DNA of 60,407 nucleotides, filler included, from Dugesia japonica (taxonomy: Eukaryota): the NCBI GenBank assembly GCA_001938525.1. It is 5 parts of 5 records of this genome, joined end to end, with 100 filler letters (N's around TTAATTAATTAA, not from the genome) between each part and the next. Parts side by side here need not be neighbours in the genome. Positions count along the whole stretch, not along the records: positions 10,517 to 20,873 come from MQRL01590355.1; 4 more parts are not named here. The stretch is one strand, 5' to 3'. Positions 1-45,310 of this stretch are shown one piece after another (the stretch's first letter is position 1; every line of letters starts with the position of its first letter). The notes under the pieces are model-generated. The model was given only the letters and a program-made list of their open reading frames with translations, was not told the DNA's origin and made no database searches. The translations under genes were made by a program, and so were the position numbers.

Positions 1-1790
1 TCAGTGCAACCGGACTTTAAGAAGCCGTTTATATTAGCAACAGATGCAAGTGGATATACAATGATGTATTGAGCCAGTTAGACTAAGAGGGTCAAGAACG
101 GGTAATCGGGTATTTCAGTAAAACTTTTCAAAGTGCAGAAAAAAACTATAGTACAACAGAGAGAGAAATATTGGCAATAGTGAAAGCAGTAAAACATTTC
201 AACCAACTTATACTTGGACATGAATTAGTAGTGAATAAAGATCATCAACCGCTTACAATGATTGGACAAAAACTGTTACAGATAAATCGAATTGCAAGAT
301 AGGCCATGAAGCTACAAGACTATGCACCATTAGTAAAATATAAATCGGGTAAAGCAAATGCAAATGCAGATTATCTGTCAAGAGCGAGATTCACGGATGA
401 ACTAGAAGAAGATACTGAAACTAAATTGCAAGATAAAGAAGTAATTATTATTCAGCAATTAATGAATCGAGAAATACGAACTTTATCTATGATATTAGCA
501 GTGAACAAAGATTTNNNNNNNNNNNNNNNNNNNNNNNNNNNNNNNNNNNNNNNNNNNNNNNNNNNNNNNNNNNNNNNNNNNNNNNNNNNNNNNNNNNNNN
601 NNNNNNNNNNNNNNNNNNNNNNNNNNNNNNNNNNNNNNNNNNGACGATACGCAATAGTCAATGGATGGTTGATGATGAAAGAAAGCGACAAAATGTTGTT
701 AGTAATACCTAAAAATAGACAAGCAAAAATTTGGGAACAATATCATAATGGAATATTAGGTCATATGTCAGCTAAAAAGACGGAATCAAAATTGAGAGCA
801 AAATATTATTGGCCACATATGACGATCAGTGTAAAAACATGGGTAGAACAATGTTAGATATGCGCAGCAAGGAGAGGAACTAGGAAGAAATTCAAAGTTC
901 CGCTACAACCAATTCCAGTGCCCGCAGCACCGATGGATATAATAGCAATGGATATAATCGGACCATTACCACCAACAAACAATGAAAAGATATACATTTT
1001 AACAGTAGTAGATTATTTATCAAAATTCCCAGAAGCTTTTGCGTTGCGAGATCAGAAAGCAGCAACAATTGCCAAAGTGTTAGTTGACAAAGTATTTAGT
1101 CGTTATGGACCTCCAAAAAAATTTTAACGGATCAAGGGAAGAACTTTATGAGCGAGTTAATGAAAGAAGTTACAAGTTTCTTCAATATTTACAAACTACG
1201 GACATCGGCATATCATCCGCAGACGGACGGAATGACAGAAANNNTCAATCAAACTTTAACAAGAATGCTATCGAGCTACGCTTCAAAGGATCAAAGAGAA
1301 TGGGACAAACATTTGAATTTATACCTTTTTGCATATAGGATGGGAGTCCATCCAACAAGAAGAGCAACACCATTTAGTTTAATGTATGGAAGAGAATGTA
1401 TTATGCCTATTGATCTGGAATATCAACCAGCAATTTCACAATACATAAATGAAGACGATTATGTGACAGGCATGAATAGAGCGAATGAAGGGAATGTGGA
1501 AATTGGCAGAAGCAAATGCAAGATTTAGTCAAGAAAGTTACAAAGAATTACACGATCGTAAAGCCGACGCTCATACATTTAAAAAGGGGGATCTTGTGTT
1601 AGTAAACACACCGAAAATTGATATTGGAAAGACAGATAAATAAAGAGACCAAGCAAAGGCCCATATATGGTGATCGAAACAACGACAACAAATATAAAAT
1701 TAAAAGAATTGGGAAAACCACTAAANAAACCAAGTATCGTGCATGTATCAAGATATAAATTAGCAGCCAAAGAGGTAGAGGCAAATAAAG
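1..1790 (+). pseudogene. pol: Ty3/Gypsy pol, 3' part (RNase H, integrase HHCC, DDE core, GPY/F), decayed
   Basis: Translations give PDFKKPFILATDASG...KNYSTTEREILAIV...DHQPL...YKSGKANANADYLSR (RNase H); YHNGILGH...YYWPHM...C*IC (HHCC); MDIIGPLP...VVDYLSKF...TDQG...TSAYHPQTDGMTE (integrase core); KGPYMV. Several stops and frameshifts. Confidence 0.96.
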
Positions 1791-3418
1791 AAAACTTAGT
1801 AGAAGCAGAACCAGAAACGAGTAAAATGAAACGAGTTCTATTTAAATTAGACAAGCCNNNNNNNNNNNNNNNNNNNNCAATCAAATCAAGAAATCGTGTG
1901 ATGATGTTAACAGCAAAACCAATAACAAAACTTTTGGAGACTCAAGAACCAAACAAAAAAGTTAATCGGTGTAAAATCTGTCAAGAAACAGACAAGAAAC
2001 AGTACCTTTGTTAAAATGTCAATTGCTAAAAATGTGTTATCAATGTTTGAAAACGACACAAGATAAAATCGTGCATGTAGATTGAGAACTTAATAGAGTA
2101 TCATTACAAGTGTCGAGAGAAAACAGATATTAAAAGATCAGCATGTAAACAATGTATGGAAGTAGTACTAAAATTAAACGTGTCCAAGGAGAAATATAAA
2201 CAATGGTGTAATAATTGTATAACAAATGCGAGATGAATAATAAGTAGTGAAATTAGATGTGTCTTCAATCACTTAATGGGCTTATCAGCAGCAAAACCAC
2301 CAAGAGTAAATATTAAATTAACAACTGAGAAGATTATGAAAAAGTTTCAGCTTAATAATGATCTAACTCAATTTGAAAATAGACGAGATATACTTAATAA
2401 ATATTATCATTCAGTGGATAGCGGATTAATTCAAGAGAATTGAATTTGCGACTATCCAAGATGTGGACGATACGGAATGAATGGACACGAATCCGCAGAC
2501 AACTGGATACCACTGTGTAAATCATGCTTATGAATTTCACAGAGAATTACAATGAGGCAACAAGAAAGATAGACATTTAATAAACCAAATCGATTCGAGA
2601 TCGACAAAAANNNNNNNNNNNNNNNNNNNNNNNNNNNNNNNNNNNNNNNNNNNNNNNNNNNNNNNNNNNNNNNNNNNNNNNNNNNNNNNNNNNNNNNNNN
2701 NNNNNNNNNNNNNNNNNNNNNNNNNNNNNNNNNNNNNNNNNNNNNNNNNNNNNNNNNNNNNNNNNNNNNNNNNNNNNNNNNNNNNNNNNNNNNNNNNNNN
2801 NNTGAAATCAGATGCACTTATTGTAATAAAAATCGAATAGAAACCAGGATCGTAATAACGAAAAACAAGTTAAAAGGGGTATGCCTGAAATGTATAATAA
2901 TAATGGGGCTACAACTGAAAGAAGCTGTAGAGAAAATATGGGATATGATAGATACAAATCCAGAACAGACAGAAGCTCAGAAGTGTAATCGATGTGTATC
3001 AAAGAAACCAAATAAATGTCCAATTGTGGCGGAAGACTTAAAGAATTTATGTAATAAATGTTTCCAAAAGACAGAAATCGAGGTGAAAGACTCACTAATT
3101 TTAATAGCACGAAAGAGAAGCTGGTTGATGAATCATCCGGTACAGGATAATCAAGGATGTCTCCAATGTAAAACAAACGATGAAGCAATGGAGTTACCAA
3201 TACCAAATAATGTGTTCAAGAAGTTGTGTTTAATATGTACAGAGATAATGCGATATCAATTAGAGAAAACAGTTAACGAATTACATAAAGTAATGGCACA
3301 ACGGAAAATGGAAGAGCAACATCATTGTATCAAGTGGCAGCCTCGAATCGACGAGGACGCCGATCTTTCGAAAGAAGAGGGTGATTTGAAGAGACAAGGT
3401 GAAGCACTCATTAGGTAA
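1790..3418 (+). pseudogene. Post-integrase extension with six CxxC-x17-19-CxxC zinc-finger-like units
   Basis: CKIC..CYQC (~1970-2046), CKQC-x17-CNNC (~2143-2220), (Y)PRC-x17-CKSC (~2453-2527), CTYC-x19-CLKC (~2813-2893), CNRC-x18-CNKC and CLQC-x19-CLIC (ORF 2903-3418). Frameshifts and an N gap interrupt the frame. Confidence 0.7.
3370..3381 (+). promoter_or_regulatory. Polypurine tract of the Gypsy element
   Basis: GAAAGAAGAGGG at the end of the pol region, preceded by CGAGGACGCCGATCTTTC and followed by an abrupt shift to non-coding AT-rich DNA. Confidence 0.6.
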
Positions 3419-5635
3419 GATTTCATTCTACGATTAGAAATGGGGTTGCATGTAATGCAAACAAGTCTAAATATGATATCTTAAAAGATTACATTATCAT
3501 AATGGCTGAAGATTGTGAAAATTAATTATGTAATCTTGTTATAAAAAATAAATGTTTTTTTTTAAAATGGTTTTAAATTTATTTTATAAATAGTTTTTTA
3601 CTATTTTATAAATAGTTCTTATTATATTATAAACAGTAATATAAGTAATATTATAAGTAGTAATTAGAAAATATGTAAAAATATTACTTATTACAATAGG
3701 GATGCAACACAGATGTAACACAGATTGAATACACTTTTAATGTGATGAAGTATAGTTTTTATGGGTTGACTTAAAAATTTAACAAGTTTTCCTAGAAAAG
3801 AATATCAAAATTTATATTACAAAAATCATTAAAATCTGACATTTACTGGAAAATTAATGAATTTTAAAATAAAATGTAAAATTTTGAAATTTCATGAAAA
3901 TGAAATAAAATTAACACACGAAATAAAATTATTAGAAGTGTTGGGCTGAAACAAGCCTGTGGATAACAGGAAAATTTAAACAAAAGTGAACTATGGAAAA
4001 GAGGAGACAATGCTACTGAAGTAATAAAAGAAATAGGAATATTAACCATGACAATAAAGAATAAATAAAGTGACAACTTCCTCATAATGATAGATTAAAT
4101 GAAAATTGAATTGAATTAATAAGAAACCGAGAACGAAATAGAAATAATACTTGAAGGAAAGAATGAACCTAAATCATCACAATAAAGTCAAGGTTTGAAA
4201 TATGGCATAAATCAGATTTAATCATAAGAATTACGGAATACAGAAACCAGTGATCATTACATGGAAATTATAATAAAAGAAATAATAATAAATGAAGGTG
4301 CTTAAAAAGATAATGTTCGGAAAAATGTTCAAATGACAAATTCAGAGATAAAAGAATAAGGTTAAATGATAAATGATGAAACGAAAGAAAGAGAATAATA
4401 ATTCAATAAATGAACGAATATTTATTACCAGAATGTGAAAGGCAGAAAATAAATAATAATCAACGATAAAATGCTCCAAGGAAAATAATCAACGGTAAAA
4501 TACTCAAGGAAATAATAATCAACGATAAAATGCTCAAAAGAAATAATAATTACAGAATTAAAGTACGAAGGCTCCAATAATATATTCCGTAATAAAAGAA
4601 AATCATTTAATAAATTATGGCTCATGAAATAAAAAGCAAATTAAAAATGAAGTGTATGAATAATGTCAAGAAATGATAAAGGAGAAATAACGAACGAAAG
4701 CGAAATTAGAGTGTGNNNNNNNNNNNNNNNNNNNNNNNNNNNNNNNNNNNNNNNNNNNNNNNNNNNNAAAAAGATAGTTAAAATATAATAAAATAATTAT
4801 TTCGTAAAGTAAGATTAAAACAAAAGCAAGTTATAGTAAAAGATTTTATGAAAGTCAAACGAGTTTACGAGAAAATAGTTAAGACGTAAATTATTATTAT
4901 TATAGTAAGAACATTATTAAAATTATTGTAATGTCGATATAAACCTTTATATCATAATAATAAAAGTATTTGAATAATTAGAAATAATATTATTATTATT
5001 TTAGTTAAATACTATTAATTCAGAAAAAGAAAGCGAAGTTAAGAAATCAGAATTATATTTTATAAAGGAAAATAGAAAGTTAAATTAATATTTCAGAGGT
5101 ATATTGAATTTTTGTAAGATAAATATTAATAAAATGATTNNNNNNNNNNNNNNNNNNNNNNNNNNNNNNNNNNNNNNNNNNNNNNNNNNNNNNNNNNNNN
5201 NNNNNNNNNNNNNNNNNNNNNNNNNNNNNNNNNNNNNNNNNNNNNNNNNNNNNNNNNNNNNNNNNNNNNTTAAATTAATATTTCAGACGTATATTGATTT
5301 AATTGTATTTATTCACGTAGAAATTCCTATTTGTATTATAGCAGCAAACTATCTAAAATTATTATTATTTTAAGATAAATATTATTGAAATTATTATTAT
5401 TGCATAAATATTGTTATTTATAGAGAAAGAATTTGAATTAAGAGAACAGAGTTGTATGAGAAGAAAGACAGTAAAAAGTTATTTAAGTATTAAAAAATTA
5501 TATTAAATTATTTATGGATTTACGTTAATATTTATATTTAAAGATTAAAAACAAGAAATGAAAATTATTATTATTATGTTTAAATATTATTAATTTTAAA
5601 ATTTATTCGTGCCGGTCCGATGATCATGGATTTCA
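3387..5635 (+). mobile_element. Candidate long LTR (~2.25 kb)
   Basis: Starts TGAAG just after the PPT and ends TTTCA followed by T-TGGCACCG (PBS-like). Contains a ~30-bp tandem repeat. No second copy in the window to confirm. Confidence 0.4.
4451..4550 (+). repeat. ~29-30-bp tandem repeat, about 3 copies
   Basis: ATAATCAACGATAAAATGCTC(C/A)A(A)GGAAA repeated. Confidence 0.8.
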
Positions 5636-6241
5636 TTGGCACCGTTCACGTTGAAGCAGATCAATTGTAGACNATTTATATGTATCGGGTGAGCACCGTG
5701 CATTCTGAAAATAATCTGTGTCGGGTGAGCATCGCACAGAATACACAACAGTAAATAAGGATGCCGAGTGAGCACCAACCTTTATATGCAGCATTAAATA
5801 ATATGAAAAAATATACACGTCCAAATTTGGACATATTAGCAGAATCTGCGATTGAGCACCGCACGATTCAATGATTTTTCAAAGATTTGTAGAACTGCTT
5901 ACTGCAACTGTCAAAATTGATTTTACAGGGCAGTATAAAAGAAAAGATACCATCCAGCAAATTACCATTATTTACCATTTTTTAACATTTAATATTTTTG
6001 CCATATTTTTTCATTGTTAAATTTTACTAAATAGTTATTAGTCACTTATTAAGCACATTAATCGAGATATTTCTCTTAAAAAGAAACTCAGTTCTATCAT
6101 TAACAGACTACAAAGTAAATTTGAATTATATTTATTAGATAAAATCGGAAGACTGGAATGATGCTCATCGTTGACTGGCAACGATCGACATCAATGCTCA
6201 GAGATCCGTTCTTAATTTCGATGCGAGATTATCCACTAATA

Positions 6242-6490
6242 AAAGTTTATACTGCTATAATATTGAAAGTTTATAAAAGTTCATAATGCTATGATATTAA
6301 AAGTTTAAAATGCTATGATATCGAAAGTTGATAATGCGATGATATTGAAAGTTTATAATGCTATAATATTGAAAATTTATACTGCTATAATATCGAAAGT
6401 TGATAATGCGATGATATTGAAAGATTATAATGAGATGATATGTAAAGTTTATAATGCTATGACACTGAAAGATTATAATGATATAATTTT
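6242..6490 (+). repeat. 24-bp minisatellite, about 10 copies
   Basis: Unit AAAGTTTATAATGCTATGATATTG. It explains the repetitive ORFs 6315-6821(+) and 6297-6524(-). Confidence 0.9.
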
Positions 6491-7050
6491 TATGGATAAA
6501 AGAGTGGAACAACAGGTGCATCACTACAATAATCAGTTAGCGGAGATCTTGAGCAGGAACGAACACCGAAAGAAAGAACTGATATCTTTGCTGATACGAT
6601 CAACGGAAGTGCGAGCAATCCAAAGTTACTCAGCTAGAAATGGAAGAATTCAACAAGATGTCGGATCAGCTGAACATAAAAATCGAAGAGATGTTACGAC
6701 AGACTCTAATACCGCTCGATGGTACAAAAGAAAATCAGGAAACTTTATTGTGTATAATGATTCATGTGTTAACAGCAATACAGTTTTAAGTCTAGTATTT
6801 TCATGTCTTGATTATATTTAATGATAATGTGTTAAACTGAATCAAAGGAATAAGAGAAATTAAAAGAGAAATTCGTTTAAATTTTGTGAGTTCCGATTTG
6901 AAATGTTAATGATATATAATATGCTGAATGATTTAATATTTGATAAAATAATGGTTTAATAAGTATTGAATAATGAAGTTGATAAATCAAAACGAGAGCC
7001 GGATAGAAATGGAAATATAAAACGGGATACAGCATAGTCCCGCTGAATCC

Positions 7051-10516: not shown

Positions 10517-12335
10517 TCACCGCCGTGAATAAGGAGTACTGCTCTCGGGAACTAGCTACTTTAGATAGTTCTCAGGCCGAAAGAATTTTATGTTTATCTA
10601 GAAGAGATAAGTCATGAAGGTGTCGGCAACGTTAAGCATACGTAAATGATAGGGTGACCACCCACGGCAGTTCGGTTGGGTTTTGCCTTGAAATCCATTT
10701 TCTACAGCTATTTGCTCATAACCTTACTGAATTTTATTGATAAGGTGAAATGAGTCCTGGTAGAATCAGCCGAAATTGATTCGGAGAAACTTGTGATAAT
10801 TGAATTTCAGTGTTGACTAGAAGGTACATCAGTTGACAAATATGGAATCAGATTAGCGGGAGTTGGAAACCTAGGTAGAGTTTCAACTGTAATTTTACGT
10901 CAGAGCAGCACGAAAGTTACGTATCAGCGGAATTTCGATTTCCTTTGAAATCCTGCACATTAGCCAGTAGACCGGATACTTCTGGAGATTACGATTGAGA
11001 TTGTGACACATAATTTGGAGAGCCTGGAGTTGAATCGAAATAGACTACCAGCTACTCCATGAGATTATAGATTTGCGAAGCGATAATCGCAGCTGAAATA
11101 ATAGACTACCGGTTACTGAGTATTTGAAGAGATTTTAAAGGAGATTTTAGTTAAGATATCGCATGGCTGGAGTCGCCGAGACCACCAATCAGTGCAAGCG
11201 ATCAAGAATAAATACTTGGAACCTTACTGGTTGACCACCGGAAGGAGAACACGGCTGAAGATCTGATCGATGATAATGGAATAGAGAGAATGATAAATGA
11301 TATAGATTTGGAAATGAAATGTATTGATAGGATTTAATGAGGTTGAAGTGATTATTTTTGGATATTTTTGAAATGATTTAAGTGGATTTTAAAAGTTATT
11401 AGAGTTATTGGAGATTTTGGTTGAGACATTGGATATTGGAAATTTGAATTTGTAGTGGATTAATTGAGGTAAATGTATATGAAGAGTATTTTGGAGATAT
11501 TGAATAGAGTATTGTGAAAGCTATGGTGTTTTAGAGATACTAATGTGTACTAATGTGATGAGTAGTTGGGATAAGTATGGCCGAAGTAAAAAAAATGTAA
11601 TACAAAGATTATGATAAAGTAAAACGGTTATAAAGTGTAAAGATACGAGTCGACAAAGTAGATATCGCGTGTGCAAGAACTAAAAATAGTTAAAAGTGTG
11701 CAAATAAAGTCTAAAAAGTATGAGGAGTAGTAAACAAAGGTATGAAATGAATTAAGTTAAATTTGTAAAATTAAAGATGCGCATAACGAATTAAGTGAGT
11801 AAAGTAAAGTCAATGGATCAGATAAGTATGCAGTTTGTAAAAATTAAACTTAAATATGTTTATATGAGAGTGACAAGTAGATGTATAGTAAAGTAAACGA
11901 TAACAAGGGATGATGAAGTGAAAAAGTGTATATTGGGAATTAACAAGTACGAGTTATGAAATTATCAAGTATGTATAGAGAGTTTAATAGGTATGAATTA
12001 AAAGAGTGTGTGTAATTAATAAAGTGTATGCGTAATGAAGAGTGTGTGTATTGATAACAAGCTAACACAAATTAATGATAAATGCATAAAGAAGTGATGT
12101 AATTGGAGTGCAGAAGCCGGGAGGCTATCATATTTTACTTTTAGGTTATTCAACAAATCAAACGATCTAGAACTCAATCAGATAATTCACCATTGATAAT
12201 TCAACTGACAGATACAATCTACGCAATAAGACAAAGGATCAGAAATCTTATTCGAGTAAAAAATCACATCCAGCCAAGACACAGAGATCAGTAAGAGAAA
12301 TCAGCGCGATAACGACATATCGATCACTAAGTCAA

Positions 12336-13690
12336 TTGGATAATTTCAGAAGTGACAGTCCAGAATCAGGTGATGACTCAAATATGTCAGATAACGAGAC
12401 GAATAATTTAAATAAAACGTTGAACGATGACAATAATAGTATTAGCGGAACTAAAAGCAAACATGGATCGGAATGGAAAACGGAGTTTAATGACGAGCAT
12501 TTTTTAGGCGTTCCAGAAAAATTAGAGAGCTTTATAATGGCTTACGAAATTCATCGAAAGGCATGCAGATGGAGTGAAGAGCGAGCAGTAGATAGACTAC
12601 CGTTTTATTTTAAAGGATTGGCAAAAACGATATATTGGAATAAAGCAAAATTGGTCAAAGATGGAATAAAGACGTAGGCAGAACCGAAGAAACTTTAAGA
12701 GGACAACTTCAAACCATTGACATTACAAGGACAAGAAGTTCAAGATTTTACAGCAAAACGATAACTAAAAGATAAATCATTACAAACTTATGCAAACAGA
12801 GTAATGGAGACTCGGGAAATTAGAACTTGGAGAAGACGTGCAAGATAAAGTAATTCTTGGAATATTTATTAAAGGTCTCAGGAATGCAGAAGTGCGTAAT
12901 TGGGTAAACTTAAAACAGCCAAAAACAGTGGATGAAGCAAAAAATGAAGAAGGAGTATCACAACAGGTAGAAGCTTCACTGAAACAGGGAAGCATTTTTA
13001 AAATTGAGGAACCGGAGGTAAAGAAGGTTCCAAAGATAACCAATTTTATACCAGCAAACACGCAACCATTTTTAAAATCGTTGACTCTAGGTCAGAATCA
13101 ATCGGATAACAGAGGACAATTTAATAACTCGCGAGGAGGAAGTAATAATGGACAAAATAATTGGCAATCCGCGGGTAATCAAAACTTATTTAATTGTGGA
13201 AGATATGGACACATTACTAGAGAATGTCGTTCAGGATCATTAAGCTGTACTTTGTGTCAAAAGACAGAACATACGGCAGATCGATGTTTTACATCCAAAC
13301 TCATAGTATGTTATACTTGTAATAAACCGGGTCATACGAGCAGAAATTGTTTCAACAATACAAACCGAGGAGGATATAGAAATAATAATCGGGGATTTCA
13401 GAAGAAGTCAAACAATCAAGCAATCGAGAGTATGATGCAACAAAATAATAATCTAAGACAATAATTGCAAAGTAATCAGAAACAGAGTCAATAACGAGTT
13501 AATATGTTGCAGCAAGTAGTATAGCGACATGAAGCGACACAAAAAAGAGTATATGATAAACTCAAACAAGAACAAGAATACTTAAAGCTCCAAGTCGAGG
13601 AACAACGAGTAGCATAGATGAGATTGAACGAGAGAGCGGCACATAATAATAATGGTCAATGACGGGTGAATATGATGCGAGCAGTAAATG
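12336..13690 (+). pseudogene. gag: Gag (Ty3/Gypsy capsid, three CCHC knuckles, Q-rich coiled coil)
   Basis: FLGVPEKLESFIMAYE...WSEERAVDRLPFYFKGLAKTIY...FIKGL...VRNWVNLKQPKTVDEA; knuckles (F)NCGRYGHITREC, CTLCQKTEHTADRC, CYTCNKPGHTSRNC. Confidence 0.92.
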
Positions 13691-16053
13691 ATGAAGAGGT
13701 CAGAACAAGCTTCGATCAAACGACGAGTAGAGAGCATACTCGATTTAATACAAGGATTCAACGGAACGATCGACAGAAAACATTATTGGAAATTAATGAA
13801 TCATGTAATGGAACTAATGGAGTGTAGTCATCTAAGCCCAAGAACTAAAATGGAATGGCAGCCAATGATCTTGGAGTATGAAAGTGAAATGCGAGATAAA
13901 ACAATACCGGAAGACTTCAAAATCATAATCAATAAAACATGTAAAGAATTTAAAGAGCCATCTGGAGAGATAGCGCAGTATCAGGTCACCTTACAAAATG
14001 ATACGGTAGGAGGACTTTGTGCGCTATTAAGAATAAAAAGGTACTCGAAAGACCGCTGTATGATTATGTGTTATGCTCCAAGACGAGAGTAATCGAACAA
14101 GATGATATTGATGCGCAAATAACAAATTATGAAATTCGACCTGGACGTATAGAGATAATACAAGTCTTAGATTTAACAGAAATTTATAAAACGAAGCAAC
14201 CAGTGCGGCATTATTTACAATTTTGAACAATAAAGGAGATAATGAAGTCCTTGGAGCAGAAACTTTATCGATATACAACGGAGGTACGAAAACCAATGAC
14301 AACTGCTACACGAGACCGTCAACCCGTCAAATAATTCAATTTTGAACCGACTAAATTGGCAACAAGCAGATTAAATATATCTAGCAATGTTAAAACCGAC
14401 AAAGAAATCAATTAGACGATGACGAGATCAGCAATCAAGGTTCCACCATGTAATTTAGGAGTGATGGCACAAGTAAATATGATGACAACTAAAGAGATAT
14501 CTGATACTGAAAATGAAACAGATAATATAATCCAAAAAGAAATCGAGACAATAGAAGCATTACTAAAGATAAAGAGAGCCATCAAGGAACCGACAGCGCG
14601 ATCAAAGATGGAAATGAATCAACGGAGGCTATCGACAAAATATTCTCGATAAAGCGGAATCTAAAGGATAAATTAAACAGATGACGTTATTGGATGACAA
14701 TGAACCACTTGGCGGAAATAACTGAACTAAGACATGTAGATACTACGACTAAATAGAAGTGGAAGCTGCTAATCATGAAATACAAAGCTGAGGTAATAAA
14801 GGAATTAAAAAACAAGGATTATTTTGTCTGGGTCGGAGAATCAATCAAGCCAGTACCGATAGGTGAAGAGAGGTGGAGTCCAGAAAACATGTGACCAATA
14901 ACGTTAAAGGCGGAAATGACGAAATACTATCGTCCTAAAGTCATGAAAATTAAAGGAACAACAATTAGAGATTTAATTGAAGCTTTATCGGAATTAGAAT
15001 GGCCGAAAGCGATAACAGAATATATTATACATATTCCAACAATCAAGATCAAGATGATGTAGACGAACATGTATATACTTATGGAGTCAAACCAGGATGG
15101 GAACTGGAAATTAGATTGACCGACAAAGAACGAGTGTGTCGAGATCAAGAGAAATTATGGCCGCACTTAGATTTTCGAACAACAGAGGAAATTTTGATAT
15201 CGCTGTATGAATGTTTTATGAGTTATATAGTGCCGCTAATTAAAGATACGAAACTCAAAGAACGAAAAAATCAAATTTCAGATTCAAAGACTGAAGACAA
15301 CAAACCGAGTACGAGTCAAGAAAGATTATTCATTATGCGATCAATTTCAAAATTTTTGAGTAAAAGTAATAAGAGCCCGAAACAACCAACGATTATAAAT
15401 GATATTAGCATGAGTAAGTTGAGCGAGATAACGGTAGCAGGGACGATGATTCCGACAACGAATATTATCAGAATGTAGTAACTATAGAAAATTATGTCAA
15501 AGAAACCTTACGTCGAAAAGAAAGAATCCCGAAGCAATCGTATTGGAGAATATTGAATATAGCATGGGATGAACATTATTATTAGTGGACGAGAGGAGCA
15601 AAACGCAGTGCCAACCCAGAGTTAATTGAGAGGTACACAGAGCAAATAAAGAAGGAAACTGTGGGAGCATATTTTGGAGTTAAAATTAATTATCCGACGA
15701 TAGATGATTATTTAGTGACAACAATGCAAACAAAAGTGATTAAACGATTTGAGACGACAAATGCGGGTGAATTAAAGGATATTCTTAGTGAATTACTGTT
15801 AAAACATGGACTGGAGCGATATATAATACTATGTGATTATATGATAATTGAACGAGACAAATTGAATAACTGAGAAATGCATTTAATTGAGTTCAGGTTA
15901 AGACCTGGAGAGATTACAGAATTAACATTAGAATATGATGATGGTCAACCGAAAGAGTTTATGAAGTTATCAGTCAGTAAAATGCGAGCAAAAATGAGAA
16001 AAGTATATCAAGAGGAGATAGACCAATTCGAGTATTTAAAGTTAATACATGAT

Positions 16054-16455
16054 TGTTTTACAATTGCAATTATTATGAGAATAATTTTTGGACTTAACCA
16101 TTGATCGTTTTATAGAATTCATATAATATTAAAGCTTAGATCAAAATTATTGATATTGGATAACAATTCGATACTTCGACCTTGTCTTCGTCAGGAATTG
16201 ACTTNNNNNNNNNNNNNNNNNNNNNNNNNNNNNNNNNNNNNNNNNNNNNNNNNNNNNNNNNNNNNNNNNNNNNNNNNNNNNNNNNNNNNNNNNNNNNNNN
16301 NNNNNNNTTATTTTATATTTAATTATTTAATTTAATTATTGTAAATTATATTTAGTTTAGAATTGCTTTATTTTATTAGTATTTCTTCATGTTTTTTCTA
16401 TGAAGTGTAGATATGTAGCCTGTTCCTAGTGTTTTCCATGTAATAATACATGTAA
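16054..16455 (-). mobile_element. ~400-bp hammerhead-containing insertion (Penelope- or retrozyme-like) with 12-bp TSD
   Basis: TTAATACATGAT at 16042-16053 and 16456-16467; removing the insert rejoins LKLIHD|DQIALT. The terminus GAGAATAATT(T/G)TTGGACTTAACCATTGAT recurs at ~45177, and inverted at ~31800. Confidence 0.75.
16164..16200 (-). ncRNA. Minimal type I hammerhead ribozyme (one core mismatch)
   Basis: Minus strand reads CAATTC-CTGACGA-A-GAC-AAG-GTC-GAAG-TATC-GAATTG: stem I CAATTC/GAATTG, CUGANGA core, stem II GAC/GTC, GAAA changed to GAAG, short stem III with an NUH (AUC) site. Confidence 0.7.
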
Positions 16456-18291
16456 TTAATACATGATGATCAAATTGCATTGACAGCAACGACAGGAAAC
16501 GAAATGGAACCATGGAAAACCTTAAAGTAGAATTTAGCAAAAATCGGATTAGTAATAATTTTCATTATATTAAAAGTAGACAGAGGAAAGAGGTAATTGA
16601 TCGAATGGATCAACAAGGGTTGATATTTGGAGAACATTTTAATGAAGCTGTGAGAGCAATAGTTTATTTAAAGGCATCGCAAACGCCGAAATAAGTAGTG
16701 AAAGTAACAGCACATTTTCCAGATGAATCGAGTAAAGAATTTAAAGTGAAACGATGACAAAATGGGAGAAATTGATAAAACAAATACTAAAGTATGTGAA
16801 TAAACAATCATTAATAGACAAAGAAAATGTGGCAGTGGTAAAAAAGAGAAGATATTGTAATTTATTAATTACGGAGGATCTCGATGGAGAAGCAGTGAAA
16901 TTATCAGGTATATGGCCAGGCTTTATGATGAATATATATGTATTTGCAACAGGAGACCGAGAAAGAAATCCTTATATTAGAAGAGAAATCAGAGAGAATC
17001 TATGTCAAAAAACAATACAATATTATGTGGAGAATGTGAATCCATTAATGCCATGTGAGTTACAGGTGCATCCCGAAGACTTAAACTTTGAACTAACTGA
17101 ACGAGTTACAATGTTACAAACTGGATGAACAACGAATCGACTGTACAGATCGAATCAAGAGTTGAACAGATCCGCAGAGATATTAGAGATGAAGAATCGT
17201 AAAAAGAAGACAAATGAAGATGAGGAAAGTTTATATTATTAATCAACGAAGAGGAGATTTCAAAAGTAGACGTTCAGCATTTAATGGATCAAATGCTATT
17301 AAAAAGAGATTTAGCAATAGACGAATTGAGAGATTTAACATTTGAAATATCGAGATATAAAGAGAAATTTACGTGGGGACCGAAACAATTCAGACAGATT
17401 ATAAAACGATGGCATGTCAATGAAATAGATGAAATTGAGCCAAGGGAATACAATTTTCGAAAAGTAGATCCAGAAGAGTATATAACCAGGATAGCTGGCT
17501 TGGCTTACGAAACAATTGGAGATGTAAAGGAGAAAATACCGTTTGAGTCACCATATATTTTGACATTAAATGACAGAGAAATGTTAAGCGAAGATATAAT
17601 TGGAACATTAAACGTTCGTTGCAAGCAGACAGTTTAATTGTATATTAAACCGGAAGTAGGGAAGAGATAAATGAAAAATAAATTAGTTAAAGGTACAACG
17701 TTACCAACTGGAAAACAAATTCAACCGCAGATTACAAAGTATACGAAACCAATTGTAATCGACAGTGAAGAGGGTACGAGTAATACGACGTCAAAGTCAA
17801 CAAAGAGTAAATCAGCGAAGTCAAAAGGACATGTATCGTAAAGAGAAATTACGACAAAAGAAGATGATGTTATTAAACAAGTATTTAGATTACCAAGTGA
17901 TGACGATGACGAAGAGGAATTACAGATAACGAGAATTGATCCAGCAACAATGAGTCAAATGCCAGTGAAAAAGTAAAAGATAGTAAAGAGTAAATGTAAT
18001 CCTAGAGAAGTAGATATTGATATTCTATCACCAAGAATACCAGAGTAAACAAGACAAAAGCCACCTTCATTTTTAGAGAAATCACCTTCATTGATAGAAT
18101 TTGAGCAAAATGAGAGAATGCCAACTCCATTAGAATATGAATTTGGAGAAGAAAATATAATTCCACCAGTAGAATTTGAAGAGGAAATAACGACAACAGA
18201 TAATGCAATCGAGACTACAGATAATCAAGAAGAAACGACAGATCAAGAAATATATCAGAGAATAATGGTCGATGCGGAAACAGAAATGGAG

Positions 18292-18318
18292 CGGAAGGCG
18301 CGAGGCCGACCAAGAGGA
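18292..18318 (+). other. AT-hook motif within the retroelement polyprotein
   Basis: RKARGRPRG in ORF 18091-18897, after a long acidic/Pro-rich linker. Confidence 0.7.
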
Positions 18319-18420
18319 TCTATTACGACAAAAGGAACAACACAACGAAAACTTAAGCAAGATGAACAATTAGCAGCAGTATCACAAGAGGTCACGGAGA
18401 AATTTGAACCAGCAGAATTA

Positions 18421-18729
18421 TCGACAGAAAAAATAATGCATCAAGTATTATTAATATTATATCCGGAATTAAAGATGTGGATTGGAAATACAGTATTATC
18501 AGCAAAGTGTAAACATATTGCAGCATTATTGGAACCAATAATACAGAAGCTAACAGCATTTAAATGGACAGGAAAGAAAGAACGAGATAAATTAGAGAGT
18601 GCAGTTGAACGAATATTTGGAGGATGTCCAACTTCATCAAGAATTGCAGCGGCAGTAACATATTTAGTTAAACGGACGCACTTGGCGGTAATAGACAAAG
18701 GAGGATGGTCAGTGTGGAACGAGAAATTA
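18421..18729 (+). other. Bcl-2-like helical domain (candidate) in the retroelement polyprotein
   Basis: LESAVERIFGGCPTSSRIAAAVTYL resembles BH1 (F..VVEELFRDGVNWGRIVAFF); IDKGGWSVWNE resembles BH2 (IQDNGGWDAFVE); upstream helices sit in BH4 and BH3 positions. Confidence 0.5.
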
Positions 18730-18861
18730 AAACCGGAAACAAATCCACAACGAAACTTAGTAGAAAGAGCACGATTATTGATGAAAGATTACATAGACGA
18801 AATAGGGACAGAATCGAATGATAGAGCAAGGACGAATGCGAGTCCAAATGGTATACAATCA

Positions 18862-20873
18862 ATGTTAATGTTATTAATGTTAATGATGCTAATGTGACGT
18901 GGTGCAGCTATAAAAGTGTATGATTGTGATAAAATGAATATTGGAGAAACGGTATATTCTTTAGTAGACGTGGATGAATGTCCAGAAGTGAATCTAGAGA
19001 GTGTAGAACCAGTTCAAAAAGCGATACCATATTTTGTGTATGAGGAATCAGATTATTACAAGACAAAGGTAAGAAAATGTAGAATGACAATGACAGTGTT
19101 TGTGTATTATTGTGGGACAAGAAGCTATACAGCAATTATCGAAACTGGACAAGAAGTAAGACAGATCTCTCTAACAGGGCAGCAATGGGAAGAAGGATTT
19201 GTAACTGGAAAAATAAGAGTAGCAGACGGAAAAATTGTTAACGCTAAAAGTGGACAGATCATGCAACTAAGAATATTCGCAGCAGAAATTATATCGGATG
19301 AGCATGGAACATGTACTCGAGGTACCTATACTGTAAAAGGAGTAGTCACCAGTTATGTGGTAGTGATATAAAGTTATCGAGTCGAATTAAAGGAATATGA
19401 TATATTCTTCGATACAAAGACACAGATGATGAAAATGTACACTATGTGTAAAGCGTCAGATCTTTAATGTGACACGGGAACATCAACTTTAGTGTATAAT
19501 GTTAATCATCAAGAATGCGCAATGATATTTCTTAAAGAAACGGCTTTAAACTAATATCAAGGTAAAATGGTTATTAAAATAGATGAAAAGGAAACGACGC
19601 GACCAGTGGGGAAGGTAGATGAAGGCATGAAACCAAAAGCAGGTAAAATACACTGGGTAGAAACGCCAGTAGTTTTAATGTCGACTGACAAAAACGATAT
19701 GATCCGTTTGATACGAAAGAAAACNNNNNNNNNNNNNNNNNNNNNNNNNNNNNNNNNNNNNNNNNNNNNNNNNNNNNNNNNNNNNNNNNNNNNNNNNNNN
19801 NNNNNNNNNNNNNNNNNNNNNNNNNNNNNNNNNNNNNNNNNNNNNNNNNNNNNNNNNNNNNNNNNNNNNNNNNNNNNNNNNNNNNNNNNNNNNNNNNNNN
19901 NNNNNNNNNNNNNNNNNNNNNNNNNNNNNNNNNNNNNNNNNNNAAATATTAAAGACGAAATTGGCAACAGCAACTACAAATCCAGATAATGTATCACCAT
20001 TATTACCGATAGAGGAAGGACAATTTTGACGAACATTACCTCTCGTAATGTTCAAATATCGATGTAAAAAAAAGGATGCAACGTTGGCACCAAAGGAACA
20101 TAATAAATGCTATAATGAAGTAGAAATACTTTATGACAGAGAATAACGATTTGTGCAGCCAATCACTAGAGTTATATCACCACGAGGATATATTCCAAAT
20201 TTGATAAACTGTTCAAATTTATTTGAACCTTACTTTAAACTACAGAATAATAAATGGGTACGATTTCCAGAGAGACTTCCAGTAACAAGAGTCAGAAATT
20301 TTTCATGATTACAATTAAAAGGTGGAACACAATTTACACCGTTAAATATAGCGAAAGGAGGAATCTATCAACAAGAAGATTTGGACAAAGCAAGAGAACC
20401 TATGTTGTTTTCAGTAAAGATGATGTAAATTCTATCAAATCTAGTGCAAATAGCAGGATTGAGGATTCACAGCAGATGGTAGACCAAATTACGAATTATT
20501 ACTATCCCCGGATCATTTTCAGACAGCAACAGTCAATGTAATTAAGAAAATGTGGGGTCGATTCATAGTTTTTTGACAAGCAATGGCTGGATTACTAGGA
20601 ATAATTTTCATAAAACAGTCAAAGTGATATTGACACGATTATTGGCATGTTTGGACTTATACAAGAAAGAAAGATATCTTGGTCAATGATGATGGGAATA
20701 TTTCCAGCATGATCAAAGTCGGTAGTATTAAATAGTCATTCAAATGACTTACACTGTACGAGGAGATTATTGCGATATATGAGTCAAATAAAAGGAACAG
20801 ATGAACAGATTGTCAATCAGATTCGAGCAATGTGTAAAGATATGAGGAAACGAAAAGAAAGAAAAACGACAAT
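18862..20873 (+). pseudogene. env: Chuvirus-like (Jingchuvirales/Monjiviricetes type) fusion glycoprotein, env-like
   Basis: Signal peptide MLMLLMLMMLM*RGAA, then VYDC..YSLVDVDEC..KVRKC..YYCG..GTC..VVVI*S..MCKASDL*C; after the gap YRC..KCYNEVEI..FVQPITRVI..INC..W..GGIYQQEDLDKAREPMLF; TM region KMWGRFIVF*QAMAGLLGIIF..WSMMMGIFPA*S. The motifs follow chuvirus G order (GYDC, SLLDVGEC, YYCG, CYNELPV, GIYT.EDLD...MF, LWGGFITFG). Confidence 0.88.
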
Positions 20874-31659: not shown

Positions 31660-31833
31660 TAATCAATAAAAATAAAGAAAAAGCTTCGATCAAAATAAAA
31701 TATATTATCTTCTACAATTGTCGAAAATTTGAATATCTATAAAAATACATTTTATTTTGATTGAAGCTTTTTATTTATTTTAATGAAATCTCAAATGCGA
31801 TCAATGTTTAAGTCCAACAATTATTCTTGCAAT
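31660..31833 (+). mobile_element. Second copy of the hammerhead-element family (ribozyme core deleted)
   Basis: Inverted repeat AAGCTTCGATCAAAATAAAAT / ATTTTATTTTGATTGAAGCTT around ACAATTGTCGAAA, plus the terminus ATCAATGTTTAAGTCCAACAATTATTCTTGCAATA. Confidence 0.6.
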
Positions 31834-32486
31834 AATCAATATGGTCTATCAATTTAAATGACAAATTCAAATTTCGAATCTAATATAAATTCTGCAAATA
31901 TTTTGCAACATGCTTTTAAAAAGTATGCAACTAAAGTATTTGATAACCATTAATTCATTTTCAAATTCACAGCAGAATCAATAATTTTCTTGGTAGCAGA
32001 CTCTGTAGCAGCCTCTAGCTTCAATGAACAGATTTAAAATCGGTAAAAGTGCCCAAACAAATCCATTTCCATTTTGTCTTTGGAACCATAATATACTTCC
32101 TTTTTTTATTTCTTATCTTGAAATTGCTCTGGGTGATTTGTAAAAATAAATAATCACGTTAATGTTCCTTATGGGACAACAAACAAGATATATTTGACTA
32201 TCAATTAAATGTTGTATGACGAATTAAAATATAATTAGTTTTTGTTTAAAGATAATTATTGATTATTTTTATAAATATGTTTTTACTATTATTTGATGTA
32301 AATATATTATTATCACCTTTAATTTATTATTTAAAAAACCAAATTCTCACAAAATTATGAAATTTCACACTAATCGAAATTTCATACCAGTGTTGAGAAA
32401 TCGCGATTGGTCTCGACCCTACTTATCTACCTACTTATGGAACACACTAGAAAAGAGTAAAATGAAATAAAAACATTTATATTTAC

Positions 32487-34261
32487 TTTTCTAAAAACAA
32501 GTATTGGTAAGATATTCCAAAAACAGCTGCAACCCAGGTCATCCATAAAAATGTATCGCCAACTTTCTGATGAAAATGTCGCAAAACAAGCCTAAGAATA
32601 GTTTAATTTTAGATTCTCAAAATTTTATTCTACTTACCAAGGTGTATAAGATGTAGCAATAAATATATAAATTACTGTTCTGTCTCCAACATGAAAAATT
32701 TGTTTTAACTTTCTTAATATTGAAGATTTAATTAATAAACATGTTAAACATTATTTTTATAAAATATAAAAATATGTAAATCAAATGAAAATTAGTAGAA
32801 ATTGCACAAGAATAATTATAAACTCTGACTCAGACCAAATAATAAGTAATTAAAACAATTATTTTATACTTAAAAAAAACTTACAACTAAACATCATTTG
32901 ACGCGAACCCATAATCAGAAGTTGGAATTGATAATAAGGAGTGTTTTGAAACATTTTAAAATTGACGACCGTTCAATATGAACAATTAAGAGCATTAAAA
33001 TAAATTGGATAAAAAATAATTTGCACAACATTGCAACAAATAACCACCGTTACACATTTAGAATAAATTGACTATAAAAATGGCTGGATGATGAAAGATA
33101 CCTAAAAAATCGTGAAATTTTGTATATTGACAAACATTTATGAAAAAAGACTTCTTTCTCAATAGTTTTCTTGCAGTCGGAGGTTTAGAAAAGAGCATTC
33201 ATTATAAAACTTATAAAGAGACTACTTTGTAAGTTTCGCATAACACCTTTTTATTTTTGCATGGATTAACTATCAGCCTCTATTTATCCAAAGGTATTAC
33301 TGAATGATAAAACCAATAGATATTCTACTATTTTTAAAACAATTTTTTCCCCACTAAAATTGCTGGGCCTCTAAATATGTGGAGTCAAAGACGGTGGCCT
33401 CAATTGATTCACCTGGTAAAATATTAAATATTAACTATTAATTCGATTACGAAAAGTTATGATTTAAGACTTTATTGTTAATTTTATTTCTGTCTGCCAT
33501 AAAAATAATCAAATTGTGTAAATTTATTAGAATTCCAACTAATATAAGATTGTATCTTTTTGAAGTAATTCGGTTTTTACCGTCATTTGGGTTAAAATGA
33601 TTATTAATGCAAAATCATTTTACATCAGGGGGATTTAGTGCGTATTTATTATTAGCTCAATTCAATTCTACATGGAAAAAATGCATTTATTTTTTGAACA
33701 AACTTTAAAATCCATGTTTTTATTTTATAAATTCACTAAAGTGTAAAATAATTTAATAACTGATAAATAAAAAACCAGATCATAATTTCCATTTGGAAAT
33801 ATTTTAACCAAATATTTTATATTATGTTTTATTTTTACGTTAAATTTTTGATTATAATTTCACATAACTGAACATTTGATGACATAACACTAATAAGTTC
33901 TTTCAGAACTAGAGAAGCATATTAAGTGATTAAAAATTAAACTTACTGATATTTTCCACTAAAAGACAAGACATGGAATATGGTAGAAGTAGCAAATAAA
34001 CATATTACACCCAAGCAATAAATGAACACGACAATTTTTTCTTTTTCATTTGTGGCTTTTTTAAATAAGTGAACAGAGGCAAATAAGCTGGGTATTACAA
34101 GTAAAAAATGAGTAACAACATTGGCTGTGTGTTCATATGATGTAGGAACATATGATTCACCTGGTTTTGCTTTAGGATTCATTAATCTTAATTAAATAAA
34201 TATTTTACATTGAGTCTGATTATATTTTAACAAACTTAAATGATTTTGAACATGTAATCAT
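32487..34261 (-). CDS. MMD: MMD/PAQR (hemolysin-III family) membrane protein, 5' exons: 34236-34261 (tentative), 33947-34186, 32638-32712, 32487-32591
   Basis: Spliced translation LMNPKAKPGESYVPTSYEHTANVVTH...IYCLGVICLFATSTIFH...FHVGDRTVIYIFIATSYTPWLVLR...W..AAVFGISYQYLFLEK matches MMD/MMD2 motifs. GT-AG introns with consistent phase 2, including 46-bp and 49-bp introns. 3' exons not found. Confidence 0.9.
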
Positions 34262-36230: not shown

Positions 36231-36460
36231 TGTCAGGATAAGTAAATGAATATTTTAAGTTTTAATTTNNNNNNNNNNNNNNNNNNNNNNNNNNNNNNNN
36301 NNNNNAAGTTGTTTAAATATTCAGAGTGCTTGACAGAAGATTGAAAATCAAATAAAAAGAGTAAATAATTAAAAGGTGGAATTTCTAATTGTTTTAGAAT
36401 AAATATGTGAAAGTATGACTGACTATTTACTGAATGAGCACGTATGCCCTATTTCTAATA
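36231..36460 (+). repeat. 5' LTR
   Basis: TGTCAGGATAAG...TTTCTAATA, direct repeat of 40559-40788. Confidence 0.95.
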
Positions 36461-36473
36461 TGGTGGCAGCGGT
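36461..36473 (+). promoter_or_regulatory. Primer binding site, tRNA-Leu
   Basis: TGGTGGCAGCGGT is complementary to the tRNA-Leu 3' end ACCGCTGCCACCA. Confidence 0.85.
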
Positions 36474-36501
36474 TAATACAGATAGTATTACGGACCATCT
36501 T

Positions 36502-37514
36502 ATGTCTGATATCTACAGAAGACATGATGACATAGAAAAATTGATATGCAAGTGCGAAATGTATTTCGGCGTCAAAGGAATTAACAATAAAAAAAGATCA
36601 GGAATGGTTTGTAACGTGTTTGATAGAAGAGGAACTAGTTGGGAAGTATATTGAATTATTTAAAAAACAGAAGTATTCCAGGATCGACTTCACATAGCTT
36701 TTGGAAAGGAAAAAAGCATGATACGGGATTTCAGAGAACTATTAGATTTCAAACGAAATCATGAAGATGTGGAAACATATATTTCCAAAGTAGAAGAATT
36801 GATAAATAACTTATTTTCAAATAAAATTTTATACAAGAAAACATGGTGGCAAAGATGCTGATTCACTGTGCAGGCGATAGACGCGCAGAAGAAGTACTCC
36901 TTAGGAAAATAAATGAAGTTAATGGCATTAAAGAAACTTTGAGATCGTTAGAGAAACTGAAGAATAAAAGAGAACAAATTAATGTAGTTCAAAGCAGTCC
37001 AAAAGAAACGGTAAGATTTAATCAGACAGCTCGAAATGTGGATAGAAAACAACAACATAGTTGGTTAAAGTCTAATGATATATTTAGATGTTGGGAATGT
37101 GATAAAAAAAAAGGCCATAGTCGCCGAGAATGTCCGATGAGAAGACAAATGAAATGCTGGACGTGCGAAAAAGAAGGTCATATTAGTCGAGACTGCAGAG
37201 AAAATCAGATGAGACGATGCTTTTGATGTGAATTAAAGGGACACATTTTTAGAGAATGTAAAGAAACAACCAGCAATCAGACGAAGAACGAGGTTAGATC
37301 AAATATGTTGAACAGTAATGGAGGAATGAATCGAACTTATTATGACAACAAGAGAGTTAATGGATTTTAAAATATTAGATGTGCACCATTACATGTGATT
37401 CAGGAAGACTAAGAGCAAGGATTAAGTTATGAAAAGGATGGAGAAGATGAGAGATGAAGATTCCCAAATGTAGAGGCTCCGACAGTAGAGGAGCTAGTTG
37501 GAGCTGCATATTAA
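36502..37514 (+). pseudogene. gag: gag with three CCHC knuckles
   Basis: CWECDKKKGHSRREC, CWTCEKEGHISRDC, CF*CELKGHIFREC. Confidence 0.88.
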
Positions 37515-37699
37515 CTGGAAGTTAAATGGTATATCCTCAGGGAGTGGAGAAGTGAGAAGATGTGAATGCGATTGGAGAGAAAGTATTTAATTTTATGAAA
37601 AATGAGTGGTAGAAGTAGATAAGAGAGATGGAAAATGTTGGAGATAAAGAGACAAGCAGAGGCAGTAATTGAGTATGATGTATTTCAGGGTAGACAGGG

Positions 37700-40545: not shown

Positions 40546-40558
40546 GGAAGGAGGAGGA
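40546..40558 (+). promoter_or_regulatory. Polypurine tract
   Basis: GGAAGGAGGAGGA immediately before the 3' LTR. Confidence 0.85.
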
Positions 40559-40788
40559 TGTCAGGATAAGTAAATGAATATTTTAAGTTTTAATTTAAGA
40601 AATTAATTAGAAATTAATTTAAATAAAAAAAAGAAGTTGTTTAAATATTCAGAGTGCTTGACAGAAGATTGAAAATCAAATAAAAAGAGTAAATAATTAA
40701 AAGGTGGAATTTCTAATTGTTTTAGAATAAATATGTGAAAGTATGACTGACTATTTACTGAATGAGCACGTACGCTCTGTTTCTAATA
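40559..40788 (+). repeat. 3' LTR
   Basis: Matches the 5' LTR except for three substitutions near its 3' end. Confidence 0.95.
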
Positions 40789-41989
40789 AATATCATTATT
40801 ATTATTAGTCTTATCGTAATTATTACTGTCTTAAAAATTAAAAGTTGCTACTGAGGGTTATTTATAACTGATTACTTCTAAAAGGAGGTGTAATTTTATT
40901 GTTTCCTTGTTAATATTATCGTAGCGCCTTGATTTAACAATAAAAAACCATTATTATAGATCATTATGAACTGCAATTAATGAAACACTAATTAAAATTT
41001 ACTATAATGATTCAATACCACAAAATTTAATTAACCATGGTAACAAATCATCCATTTTATTAGCAAGTTGCAATTAATTTAAAATTTTTTAATTATAAAT
41101 ATTACTAATGTTTGAACTCATTACGACTGTGCAAAAAGAAACATTTAATGAAAGTTATTTATCATTAGTTACAAACATTTATTGATTACAGTATAATTCA
41201 AAGTTTACATAAACTAATTAAAACTAACGTGAACTGCATATTCATCTGGAGCAAGCACAGAGCGCGATTAGAAATCACTATGGCAACCCGATTGAATTGA
41301 TTTATCTATGTCCACTTACATGTCAACACTAGAATTTGTTCTTCTTTCCATTTTCACACTAACGTAATCGGTATTTTAATTAAACTGCACACCTACGCTG
41401 TATATCCTTTATTCATTACACACCTCGAAATCCACGACCCCTTTTTACTATAATTGTTTTACCCGCTGCTTTTTCCTTAATAGAAAGTCTTCGGTTTCTT
41501 ATATTTTCGTATAAATTTAATTTCCTTTTTATAATAAATCATTTAAATTTGTATGATTTATTTTATTTATAATGGTTAAATTCATTACGACTGTGCAAAA
41601 AGAAACATTTAATTTATTTTTCTTTTCAATTTATTAGTTAGATTGCCATTTTTTGTTTATAAACTGAAATTTAATTTAATTTAGGCGTTTCTTTCCATAA
41701 AAAAGTTATTTAATTTATTTTTTACCTCTTCAATTATTAACTTAATTCAATTTTTTTTCTACTTAATGAATTATTTGCTTCAGTTATTACTTGCCATTTT
41801 CTTTGTTTTCTCAGTTTGCTAATGACTTCTGTCATTTCCTTTCTTCTCTGGTTTTCTTATTTCCATGTTGTTTTCTTTTCTGCTTTAAGATTTTACGGAT
41901 CATCTCATATTTTTTAATTCCCTAATCTTGGTTTTTCTTTAATTACTTCTTTCTTTAACTACCATATTCGTCAATAGCCAAAATACTTA

Positions 41990-43859: not shown

Positions 43860-44831
43860 TAAAATTAATTAATTAAATAAATAAATTAAATTAACAGTTT
43901 TGATTGAAAATAAATTGTACTTAATAAATTTGTATATAAATTGTAAACATATGGCCGTAAAGAACATTACTTGACCGAGCGAAGTAACTTGACTGCAAAA
44001 TTCACTCAAAAAATAATTTGTTTCGAACTGATCCAAGAAGTGACTTAAAACATGTTTAAACTTCTGTTTGCTTCTAATAACAGAAAAGCAGTTTATAATA
44101 ATAATGATAAACCATATAAAGAAAAATACCCATGAAAGATTTGTAAAGTTTTTATCATTTAAAATTTCGTTTTGAAATCAAGTAAAAGAAATTGAAAAAT
44201 TTTCAAAATCTTTCTAATCCCAAATAAACAACAATATTCGAGAATATAATAAGTTAATAGCACACGGTGGATAATTTCACTAACAATTAATAGTTCAGAG
44301 GAAAATAACCATGTAATATTTGTCAATTATTATCACCGAAAAAACAAAAATTAACCAACTTCTAGAAAAGTGCATCTCGAAAAAGAAAATTCATCTTGCT
44401 ATTTATCTTCATTGATGTATTTTAAATTTTTCGACTATCAATCATCAACAGATGTTTCTAAAATTATGGTTTACGATTTTAAAAAAGTTAGTTCTAATAA
44501 ATAACTCATTAAATAGTGGATTTATAAAGTCGAATAAATGGATCCAATGAAACAAACTTATTTTTATTACTGTGAAACCTGGTTTTTACGTTTTTGACAA
44601 GACTGATTCAAATGAAGATTTTGGATAAGAATAAATGTACTAAAATAAAATGGAATTGTAAAAATTGAACGCAAATAGAGGGAAACGTGAATTCCCGGCA
44701 CGACAAAACGAGGTACAAATTCTTTAAAAACTTGGAAATTTGAAAATTATAAGTTAATTTTACTAAAAATGTTATTATGCATAAAAAATGGAAAACAAAA
44801 TTTTCTGAAACAGATGTGTTAAGCTACTTTA

Positions 44832-45125: not shown

Positions 45126-45170
45126 TTTCTCGAATATTATAATGAGTATATTAATTTGACAATCAACAAA

Positions 45171-45310
45171 TATTGCGAGAATAATTGTTGGACTTAACCA
45201 TTGATNNNNNNNNNNNNNNNNNNNNNNNNNNNNNNNNNNNNNNNNNNNNNNNNNNNNNNNNNNNNNNNNNNNNNNNNAACAACATTATTTTGATCGAAGC
45301 TTTTTAATTT
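45171..45310 (-). mobile_element. Third copy of the hammerhead-element family (core lies in an N gap)
   Basis: TATTGCGAGAATAATTGTTGGACTTAACCATTGAT...N...ATTTTGATCGAAGCTTTT. Confidence 0.55.

Follow-up and report, generated by a model that had tools for sequence, protein, structure and literature searches.

A tripled and possibly quadrupled protein module between Gag and Env of a decayed, probably Burro-type errantivirus from Dugesia japonica

What occupies the stretch between the Gag and Env regions of a decayed retroelement from Dugesia japonica, and what might it have done for the element? The locus lies in a window of 60,407 nucleotides, filler included (assembly GCA_001938525.1), of AT-rich DNA of animal type, in which N44-linker-N44 stretches join contig blocks; the block concerned, 10517-20873, comes from MQRL01590355.1. 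A preliminary description had seen there a tandem array of about five ubiquitin- or SUMO-like units. We describe it as the accessory stretch of what is probably a Burro-type gypsy errantivirus, in which a larger module was tripled or quadrupled and is followed by a ubiquitin-like (Ubl) candidate and a likely Bcl-2-like domain. Taken together with the host-docking mechanism proposed below, this is the explanation that we favour, with modest confidence.

An old module repeat

All ten peptides quoted in the preliminary description are encoded on the + strand within 13940-17660, spread across three frames. QDDIDAQITNYEIRPG is read at 14098-14145, QDDVDEHVYTYGVKPG at 15050-15097, EMHLIEFRLRPG at 15874-15909 and EDLDGEAVKLSGIWPG at 16874-16921, and ETIGDVKEKI at 17509-17538, all on that strand. 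We compared the five candidate units, U1 to U5, and the modules around them (Table 1) after patching the reading frames with X at breaks. Likeness was found for U1-U2 (z 7.2), U2-U3 (z 4.9) and U1-U3 (z 4.5); the remaining seven of the ten pairs, all involving U4 or U5, are at chance level. When the three + frames were compared with themselves with no preset boundaries, 13727-13969 matched 14631-14867 (E 1e-8) and 14095-14370 matched 15047-15319 (E 2e-5). Since these self-matches extend beyond U1 and U2, the repeat is a module of ~215 amino acids, longer than a ubiquitin domain, with the candidate Ubl set between a helical part and a downstream helix.

Of 211 residues aligned between module copies R1 and R2, 52 are identical (z 24, 0/1000 shuffles), as are 38 of 153 between R1 and R3 (z 7.3, 0/1000 shuffles). 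The pairs R1-R4 (41/1000 shuffles) and R2-R3 (70/1000) are marginal, the other six of the ten are equalled by 92-983 of 1000 shuffles, and R5 matches nothing. The segment downstream of U4 resembles that of U1 (6/2000 shuffles, one of six pairs tested), and a profile of R1-R3 run over six frames did not find a fourth or fifth copy. By these sequence comparisons, the triplication R1-R3 is real and old, a fourth copy is plausible, and U5 belongs outside the repeat family of U1-U3. Mutual similarity is thus established for R1-R2 and R1-R3 and absent for U5, and the earlier count of about five similar units was too high: the unit and module shuffles secure three and make a fourth likely. The upstream helical part of the module, its downstream helix, the non-membership of U5 and the fact that this kind of element had already been described were missed in that account.

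R1 and R2 retain no similarity as DNA (local score 28 over ~22 bases), so their duplication must be far older than the decay of the present copy. That copy is dead, since the path 12363-19722 holds 27 stops in 2305 codons and nine frame changes, and it makes no such protein now. Could the copies be inert spacers or folding aids, left by template-switch duplication and lacking a binding role? Their strong divergence (25% identity at best) would fit, as would the varying size of relatives, the Smed_errantivirus rows in the available part of PMC13524379 ranging from 14.5 to 18.0 kb. However, R1 and R2 remain collinear over 211 residues with their DNA similarity gone, a pattern that suggests prolonged purifying selection at the protein level, and we regard inertness as highly improbable.

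The insertion noticed earlier within the array is confirmed: it follows R3 and is bounded by two 12-base direct repeats (16042-16053 and 16456-16467) at a spacing of 414 bases, resembling a target-site duplication. Related pieces lie at 31754-31836 and 45167-45205. The sixth unit once suggested at ~15930-16530 scores no better than chance as a Ubl (equalled by 239-294 of 400 shuffles) and is withdrawn for lack of support.

Ubiquitin-like candidates

Does the stretch hold beta-grasp domains? Our 48-row Ubl profile drew on viral and prokaryotic loci and took in 47 listed matches; its rows are 16-88% identical to ubiquitin. Canonical ubiquitin duplicates and one short match (L254) were excluded. 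U5 scores 5.8 bits against this profile (4/1000 shuffles), and an hhalign alignment of 45 columns keeps it in register all the way from helix 1 through the final strand (probability only 4.7%, 0/60 column shuffles). A profile of 156 canonical ubiquitin rows picks out U5 (6/500 shuffles) and nothing else. In a power check, a profile of 25 closer rows recovered 23 of 23 held-out Ubls at 8-48 bits, the held-outs themselves having been picked by Pfam; U5 reached 5.1 bits (0/200 shuffles), below that range. In addition, Ubl identity is supported by position, because the published Ubi2/SUMO-like motif of Burro sits just before BCL2 (PMC6431247, in the part available). From its sequence, U5 probably has a beta-grasp fold.

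For all five units together, hhalign places the alignment in Ubl register over 48 columns (3/60 column shuffles). With only the 23 divergent rows, a subset picked after the first test, U2 is equalled by 1 of 300 shuffles, U3 by 19, U4 by 23, U5 by 35 and U1 by 280. A boundary-free scan of the interval peaks where U2, U3 and U5 end, but no higher than shuffled sequence, and the single-sequence AlphaFold model of U3 shows the order strands-helix-strands (predicted local distance difference test, pLDDT, <50). An hhalign hit of the U123 alignment (0/60 shuffles) was discounted as out of register, and three other piece alignments (A2, A3, A5) were set aside as partly misaligned.

Several results weigh against the fold. 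In sequence searches of Pfam, NCBIfam and PDB, neither the individual units nor two alignments matched a Ubl. U1-U4 score -1.6 to 0.8 bits against the 48-row profile (240, 415, 797 and 117 of 1000 shuffles, respectively) and stay at chance with the 25-row profile that found every held-out Ubl. The best peaks of the boundary-free scan, 2.3 and 4.1, do not exceed shuffled peaks (mean 3.9 and 4.5). AlphaFold models of U3, alone and with a six-row alignment, have pLDDT of 48 and 49, too poor to judge, and a structure search with the first, low-confidence model matched nothing.

The main rival reading takes up these results: only U5 would be ubiquitin-like, whatever fold the triplicated module has would be a different and so far unrecognised one, and U1-U4 would resemble ubiquitin through a chance strand-helix pattern. 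The lack of Ubl profile signal in U1-U4, the unlikeness of U5 to them and the missing fold match all speak for it. Against it stand the joint alignment in Ubl register and the weak U2 signal, and also the effect of decay. When 15, 25 and 35% of residues were decayed at random, 67, 42 and 26% of true divergent Ubls, respectively, still exceeded 6 bits, so the sensitivity of the test falls once a copy has decayed. We consider this reading possible, though we would not choose it, and lean slightly towards beta-grasp domains in U1-U4 as well. The earlier beta-grasp assignment therefore holds weakly for U5 and by position, and for U1-U4 it remains a pattern seen by eye.

None of the five units is followed by a C-terminal GG, in agreement with the preliminary description, so none has the end of a type I conjugatable modifier such as ubiquitin or SUMO. 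Type II Ubl domains without GG, such as the UBL of Rad23/Dsk2 and the SUMO-like domains of Rad60/NIP45, are integral and non-conjugated, and stand in tandem in Rad60. The present units differ from these in having no sequence match at library thresholds, and each candidate lies inside a larger repeated module. The missing GG also bears on whether the units served as host-protease cleavage signals. In bovine viral diarrhoea virus, ubiquitin C-terminal hydrolases cleave behind an inserted ubiquitin (PMC8310069, available part), a precedent that shares with our case a ubiquitin-type domain within a viral polyprotein. Pestivirus insertions, as described there, are recent, host-derived and hydrolase-cut and need an intact ubiquitin end, whereas the present units are ancient, highly diverged and without GG. 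Such a role is barely conceivable.

As a separate observation, loci L234-L255 show that genomes of one archaeal phylum carry several divergent small Ubl proteins together with Ubl-bearing open frames of ~1800-2100 amino acids.

The element, its relatives and its neighbours

Pfam matches on both sides bear out the earlier placement of the array between Gag and Env. Upstream, zf-CCHC matches the Gag knuckles in two stretches (E 3.4e-11), with a weak zf-CCHC_5 match at the first, degenerate knuckle; the capsid part has no Pfam match. Downstream, PF24664 matches Env on three pieces (E 4.3e-19, 1.1e-16 and 2.7e-4). The order is Gag (CCHC), repeats, weakly Bcl-2-like domain, hydrophobic signal and mononegavirus-type Env. 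From U5 to mid-Env there is one frame, 17224-19722, with nine stops in 833 codons, and the Env stretch presumably continued in frame back to Gag across the nine frame changes. The hydrophobic stretch ahead of Env holds the only 19-residue windows with hydropathy >1.5 on the path 12363-19722.

The helical domain before Env scores 48 against a viral Bcl-2 protein (L260; z 5.1, 4/3000 shuffles), which is itself a Pfam Bcl-2 match at E 2e-24, and z 3.9 against a second one (L267; 15/3000 shuffles). On the opposite side of the balance, the likeness amounts to one pairwise score, and a two-sequence profile does not rank this domain first in the window; Pfam, PDB and the Atlas gave no match (ESM Atlas best score 0.81, no family). 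On these comparisons the domain is likely Bcl-2-like. LYPEL, encoded inside it at 18457-18471 (+), fits the ALIX-binding LYPxL late-domain pattern but is possibly a chance occurrence. RGRPRG in the linker ahead of the domain resembles an AT-hook. The Burro description in the available part of PMC6431247 makes no mention of one.

Table 1. Features of the element in its block (positions in the window)
Feature	Position	Strand	Basis or remark
Non-coding element leader, possibly with part of the 5' long terminal repeat (LTR)	10517..12362	+	starts at the N44-linker-N44 join ending at 10516
Broken Gag with a capsid-like part (judged by eye) and three zinc knuckles, of which the first is degenerate	12363..13460	+	Pfam
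Module copy R1, with unit U1 (13937-14172) between the helical part and the downstream helix; frame change ~14085	13727..14370	+	self-comparison, alignment
Module copy R2 (unit U2, 14898-15121); frame change ~15030	14631..15319	+	likeness to R1
Module copy R3 (unit U3, 15700-15936); single frame, 2 stops	15460..16050	+	likeness to R1
Later insertion, dispersed repeat with N run	16054..16467	.	12-base direct repeats, related pieces elsewhere
Probable fourth copy, more diverged: U4 (16695-16948) and downstream segment; frame change ~16750	16695..17110	+	shuffles
Unit U5, best ubiquitin-like candidate, unlike U1-U4	17446..17655	+	Ubl profile, hhalign
Ser/Thr/Lys-rich, then acidic linker; AT-hook-like RGRPRG 18301-18318	17665..18380	+	translation
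Helical domain, weakly Bcl-2-like (BH1-to-BH2 region, GGW)	18388..18822	+	pairwise score against viral Bcl-2
Hydrophobic stretch directly ahead of Env, likely internal signal sequence	18853..18921	+	hydropathy
Env, Monjiviricetes-type (class III, glycoprotein B (gB)-like) fusion glycoprotein; broken, N run 19725-19943	18910..20620	+	Pfam PF24664

The closest known system is Burro. These giant gypsy elements of planarians have one long open reading frame (ORF) encoding a Gag whose CCHC knuckles number two or three, then accessory domains, a Ubi2/SUMO-like motif just ahead of BCL2, an env homologous to mononegavirus fusion proteins, protease (PR), dUTPase and reverse transcriptase (RT); copies degraded by stops and frameshifts are also noted (PMC6431247, 2019, available part). 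The present element resembles Burro and GYPSM1 in its CCHC Gag, accessory domains, mononegavirus-like env and decay, and its candidate Ubl lies ahead of the likely Bcl-2-like domain, as would fit their order. It has an N-terminal Gag with CCHC knuckles and, downstream, a gB-type env in frame with accessory domains, and we regard it as very probably of Burro type. A point on the other side is that the block stops at 20873, just past Env, and both element ends are cut, so gypsy Pol (PR, dUTPase, RT, RNase H and integrase), LTRs and total size lie outside the view; self-comparison found no second copy of the leader within the window, and thus no partner LTR. Burro1 proper differs in its MATH, BIR/RING and ankyrin cargo, none of which Pfam detected in the reading frames covered from the present Gag to Env, in a decayed copy whose 3' part is absent. 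In addition, the Burro paper names, in the part available, one Ubi2/SUMO-like motif, whereas the present element has a three- to fourfold module repeat. The Ubl-BCL2-Env layout is therefore already published, and only the internal expansion to three or four modules appears to be new.

Other retroelements offer looser comparisons. The BEL/Pao elements with a chuvirus glycoprotein are known as Anakin. They too combine a retroelement with a chuvirus-type fusion protein, but belong to another superfamily and host, and no accessory array is reported in the available part of PMC7642597. The available part of PMC13524379 lists six GAG-ENV-POL errantiviruses of S. mediterranea. Two of them, Smed_errantivirus_5 and _6 (Platyhelminthes, herpes simplex virus (HSV)/gB-type), have Env directly behind the Gag region, as here. 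The present Env aligns without gaps to the ectodomain of Smed_errantivirus_6 (supplementary file 3), with ~70 of 169 residues identical (~41%, hand count). The words 'ubiquitin' and 'SUMO' occur 0 times in the main text of PMC13524379, as available.

Homologue searches found no relative. Three queries, namely the frame from U5 to the start of Env and the 5' halves of Env and R1, gave 0 word-index matches among longer proteins (ranges up to 2845 or 2000 amino acids, below the 5000-residue Burro ORF). HMMER with a 569-residue frame against 1.84 billion representatives gave 0 at E 0.001, metagenome and viral contigs contained no relative, and most of U4 reached a best ESM Atlas score of 0.89 with no family. 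A tandem Ubl array was not found in the literature searched on Burro/errantivirus elements, where Grohme 2018, Jurka 2007 and Lee 2026 may describe one.

Elsewhere in the window, 1-3500 (+) is the 3' end of another gypsy-like element, which encodes RNase H and an integrase (Pfam Integrase_H2C2, E 1e-12); behind these runs an interrupted Cys-rich ORF in which CxxC pairs are numerous, with no clear Pfam match (1880-3415, +). A third decayed gypsy element at 36400-40790 (+) has a CCHC Gag, protease, RT, RNase H and integrase by translation; a 155-base direct repeat at 98% (36306-36460 and 40634-40788) probably represents LTR parts of a younger insertion. An exon-sized, intron-broken, animal-type piece of a host HlyIII/PAQR-family gene lies at 33946-34191 (-; Pfam E 7e-7) and is probably MMD-like. 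Other remnants are a Mariner/Mos1 transposase helix-turn-helix (49049-49273, +; Pfam HTH_48, E 2e-11), a segment resembling a PIF1/Helitron helicase end by eye, with no Pfam match (44753-45034, +), and a tandem 24-base repeat of ~9-12 copies (6228-6515, +), open in one frame (6309-6821). The window has no tRNA or Rfam match.

A possible host-control cassette

How might such a stretch have worked? In the explanation that we favour, Gag, the accessory stretch and Env would have been made as one polyprotein, as in Burro. The accessory stretch would stay cytosolic because it lies ahead of the only hydrophobic segment, and this internal signal would send Env into the endoplasmic reticulum; protease and signal peptidase would then free the accessory stretch. 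Its modules would hold GG-less (type II) beta-grasp domains, neither conjugated nor cut by ubiquitin hydrolases, at which host proteins that bind ubiquitin or SUMO could dock non-covalently and in a multivalent manner. Given a beta-grasp fold, we put the docking role at an even chance. Together with the Bcl-2-like death blocker, the docking modules may have formed a host-control cassette that kept the producing cell alive.

A more specific version would make four to five beta-grasp domains an uncleavable polyubiquitin or polySUMO mimic, soaking up host chain readers (ligases, deubiquitinases and silencing factors) and, with the Bcl-2-like domain, protecting both the element and the host stem cell. 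This version we find doubtful. Alternatively, Gag-linked ubiquitin mimics might recruit the endosomal sorting complex required for transport to the enveloped particle. Ubiquitin fused to Gag can replace late domains, the stretch lies directly behind Gag, and the element has a full Env. However, the units are far from ubiquitin in sequence, no pairwise comparison doing better than 162/2000 shuffles, and owing to this distance an Ile44-type surface is not evidently kept. A budding role is therefore improbable.

Burro1 is silenced by piRNA (PMC8532177, available part), and its anti-apoptotic cargo reportedly shields the stem cells of planarians (PMC13465017, available part, citing Lee et al. 2026). 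Compared with what is already known, the gain from the present locus is modest because the element type and the Ubl-BCL2-Env layout are published, the copy no longer functions and the beta-grasp fold is putative. Nevertheless, a lineage in which another cargo module multiplied would make the Gag-Env interval an evolving host-control cassette, and would give that idea a concrete domain.

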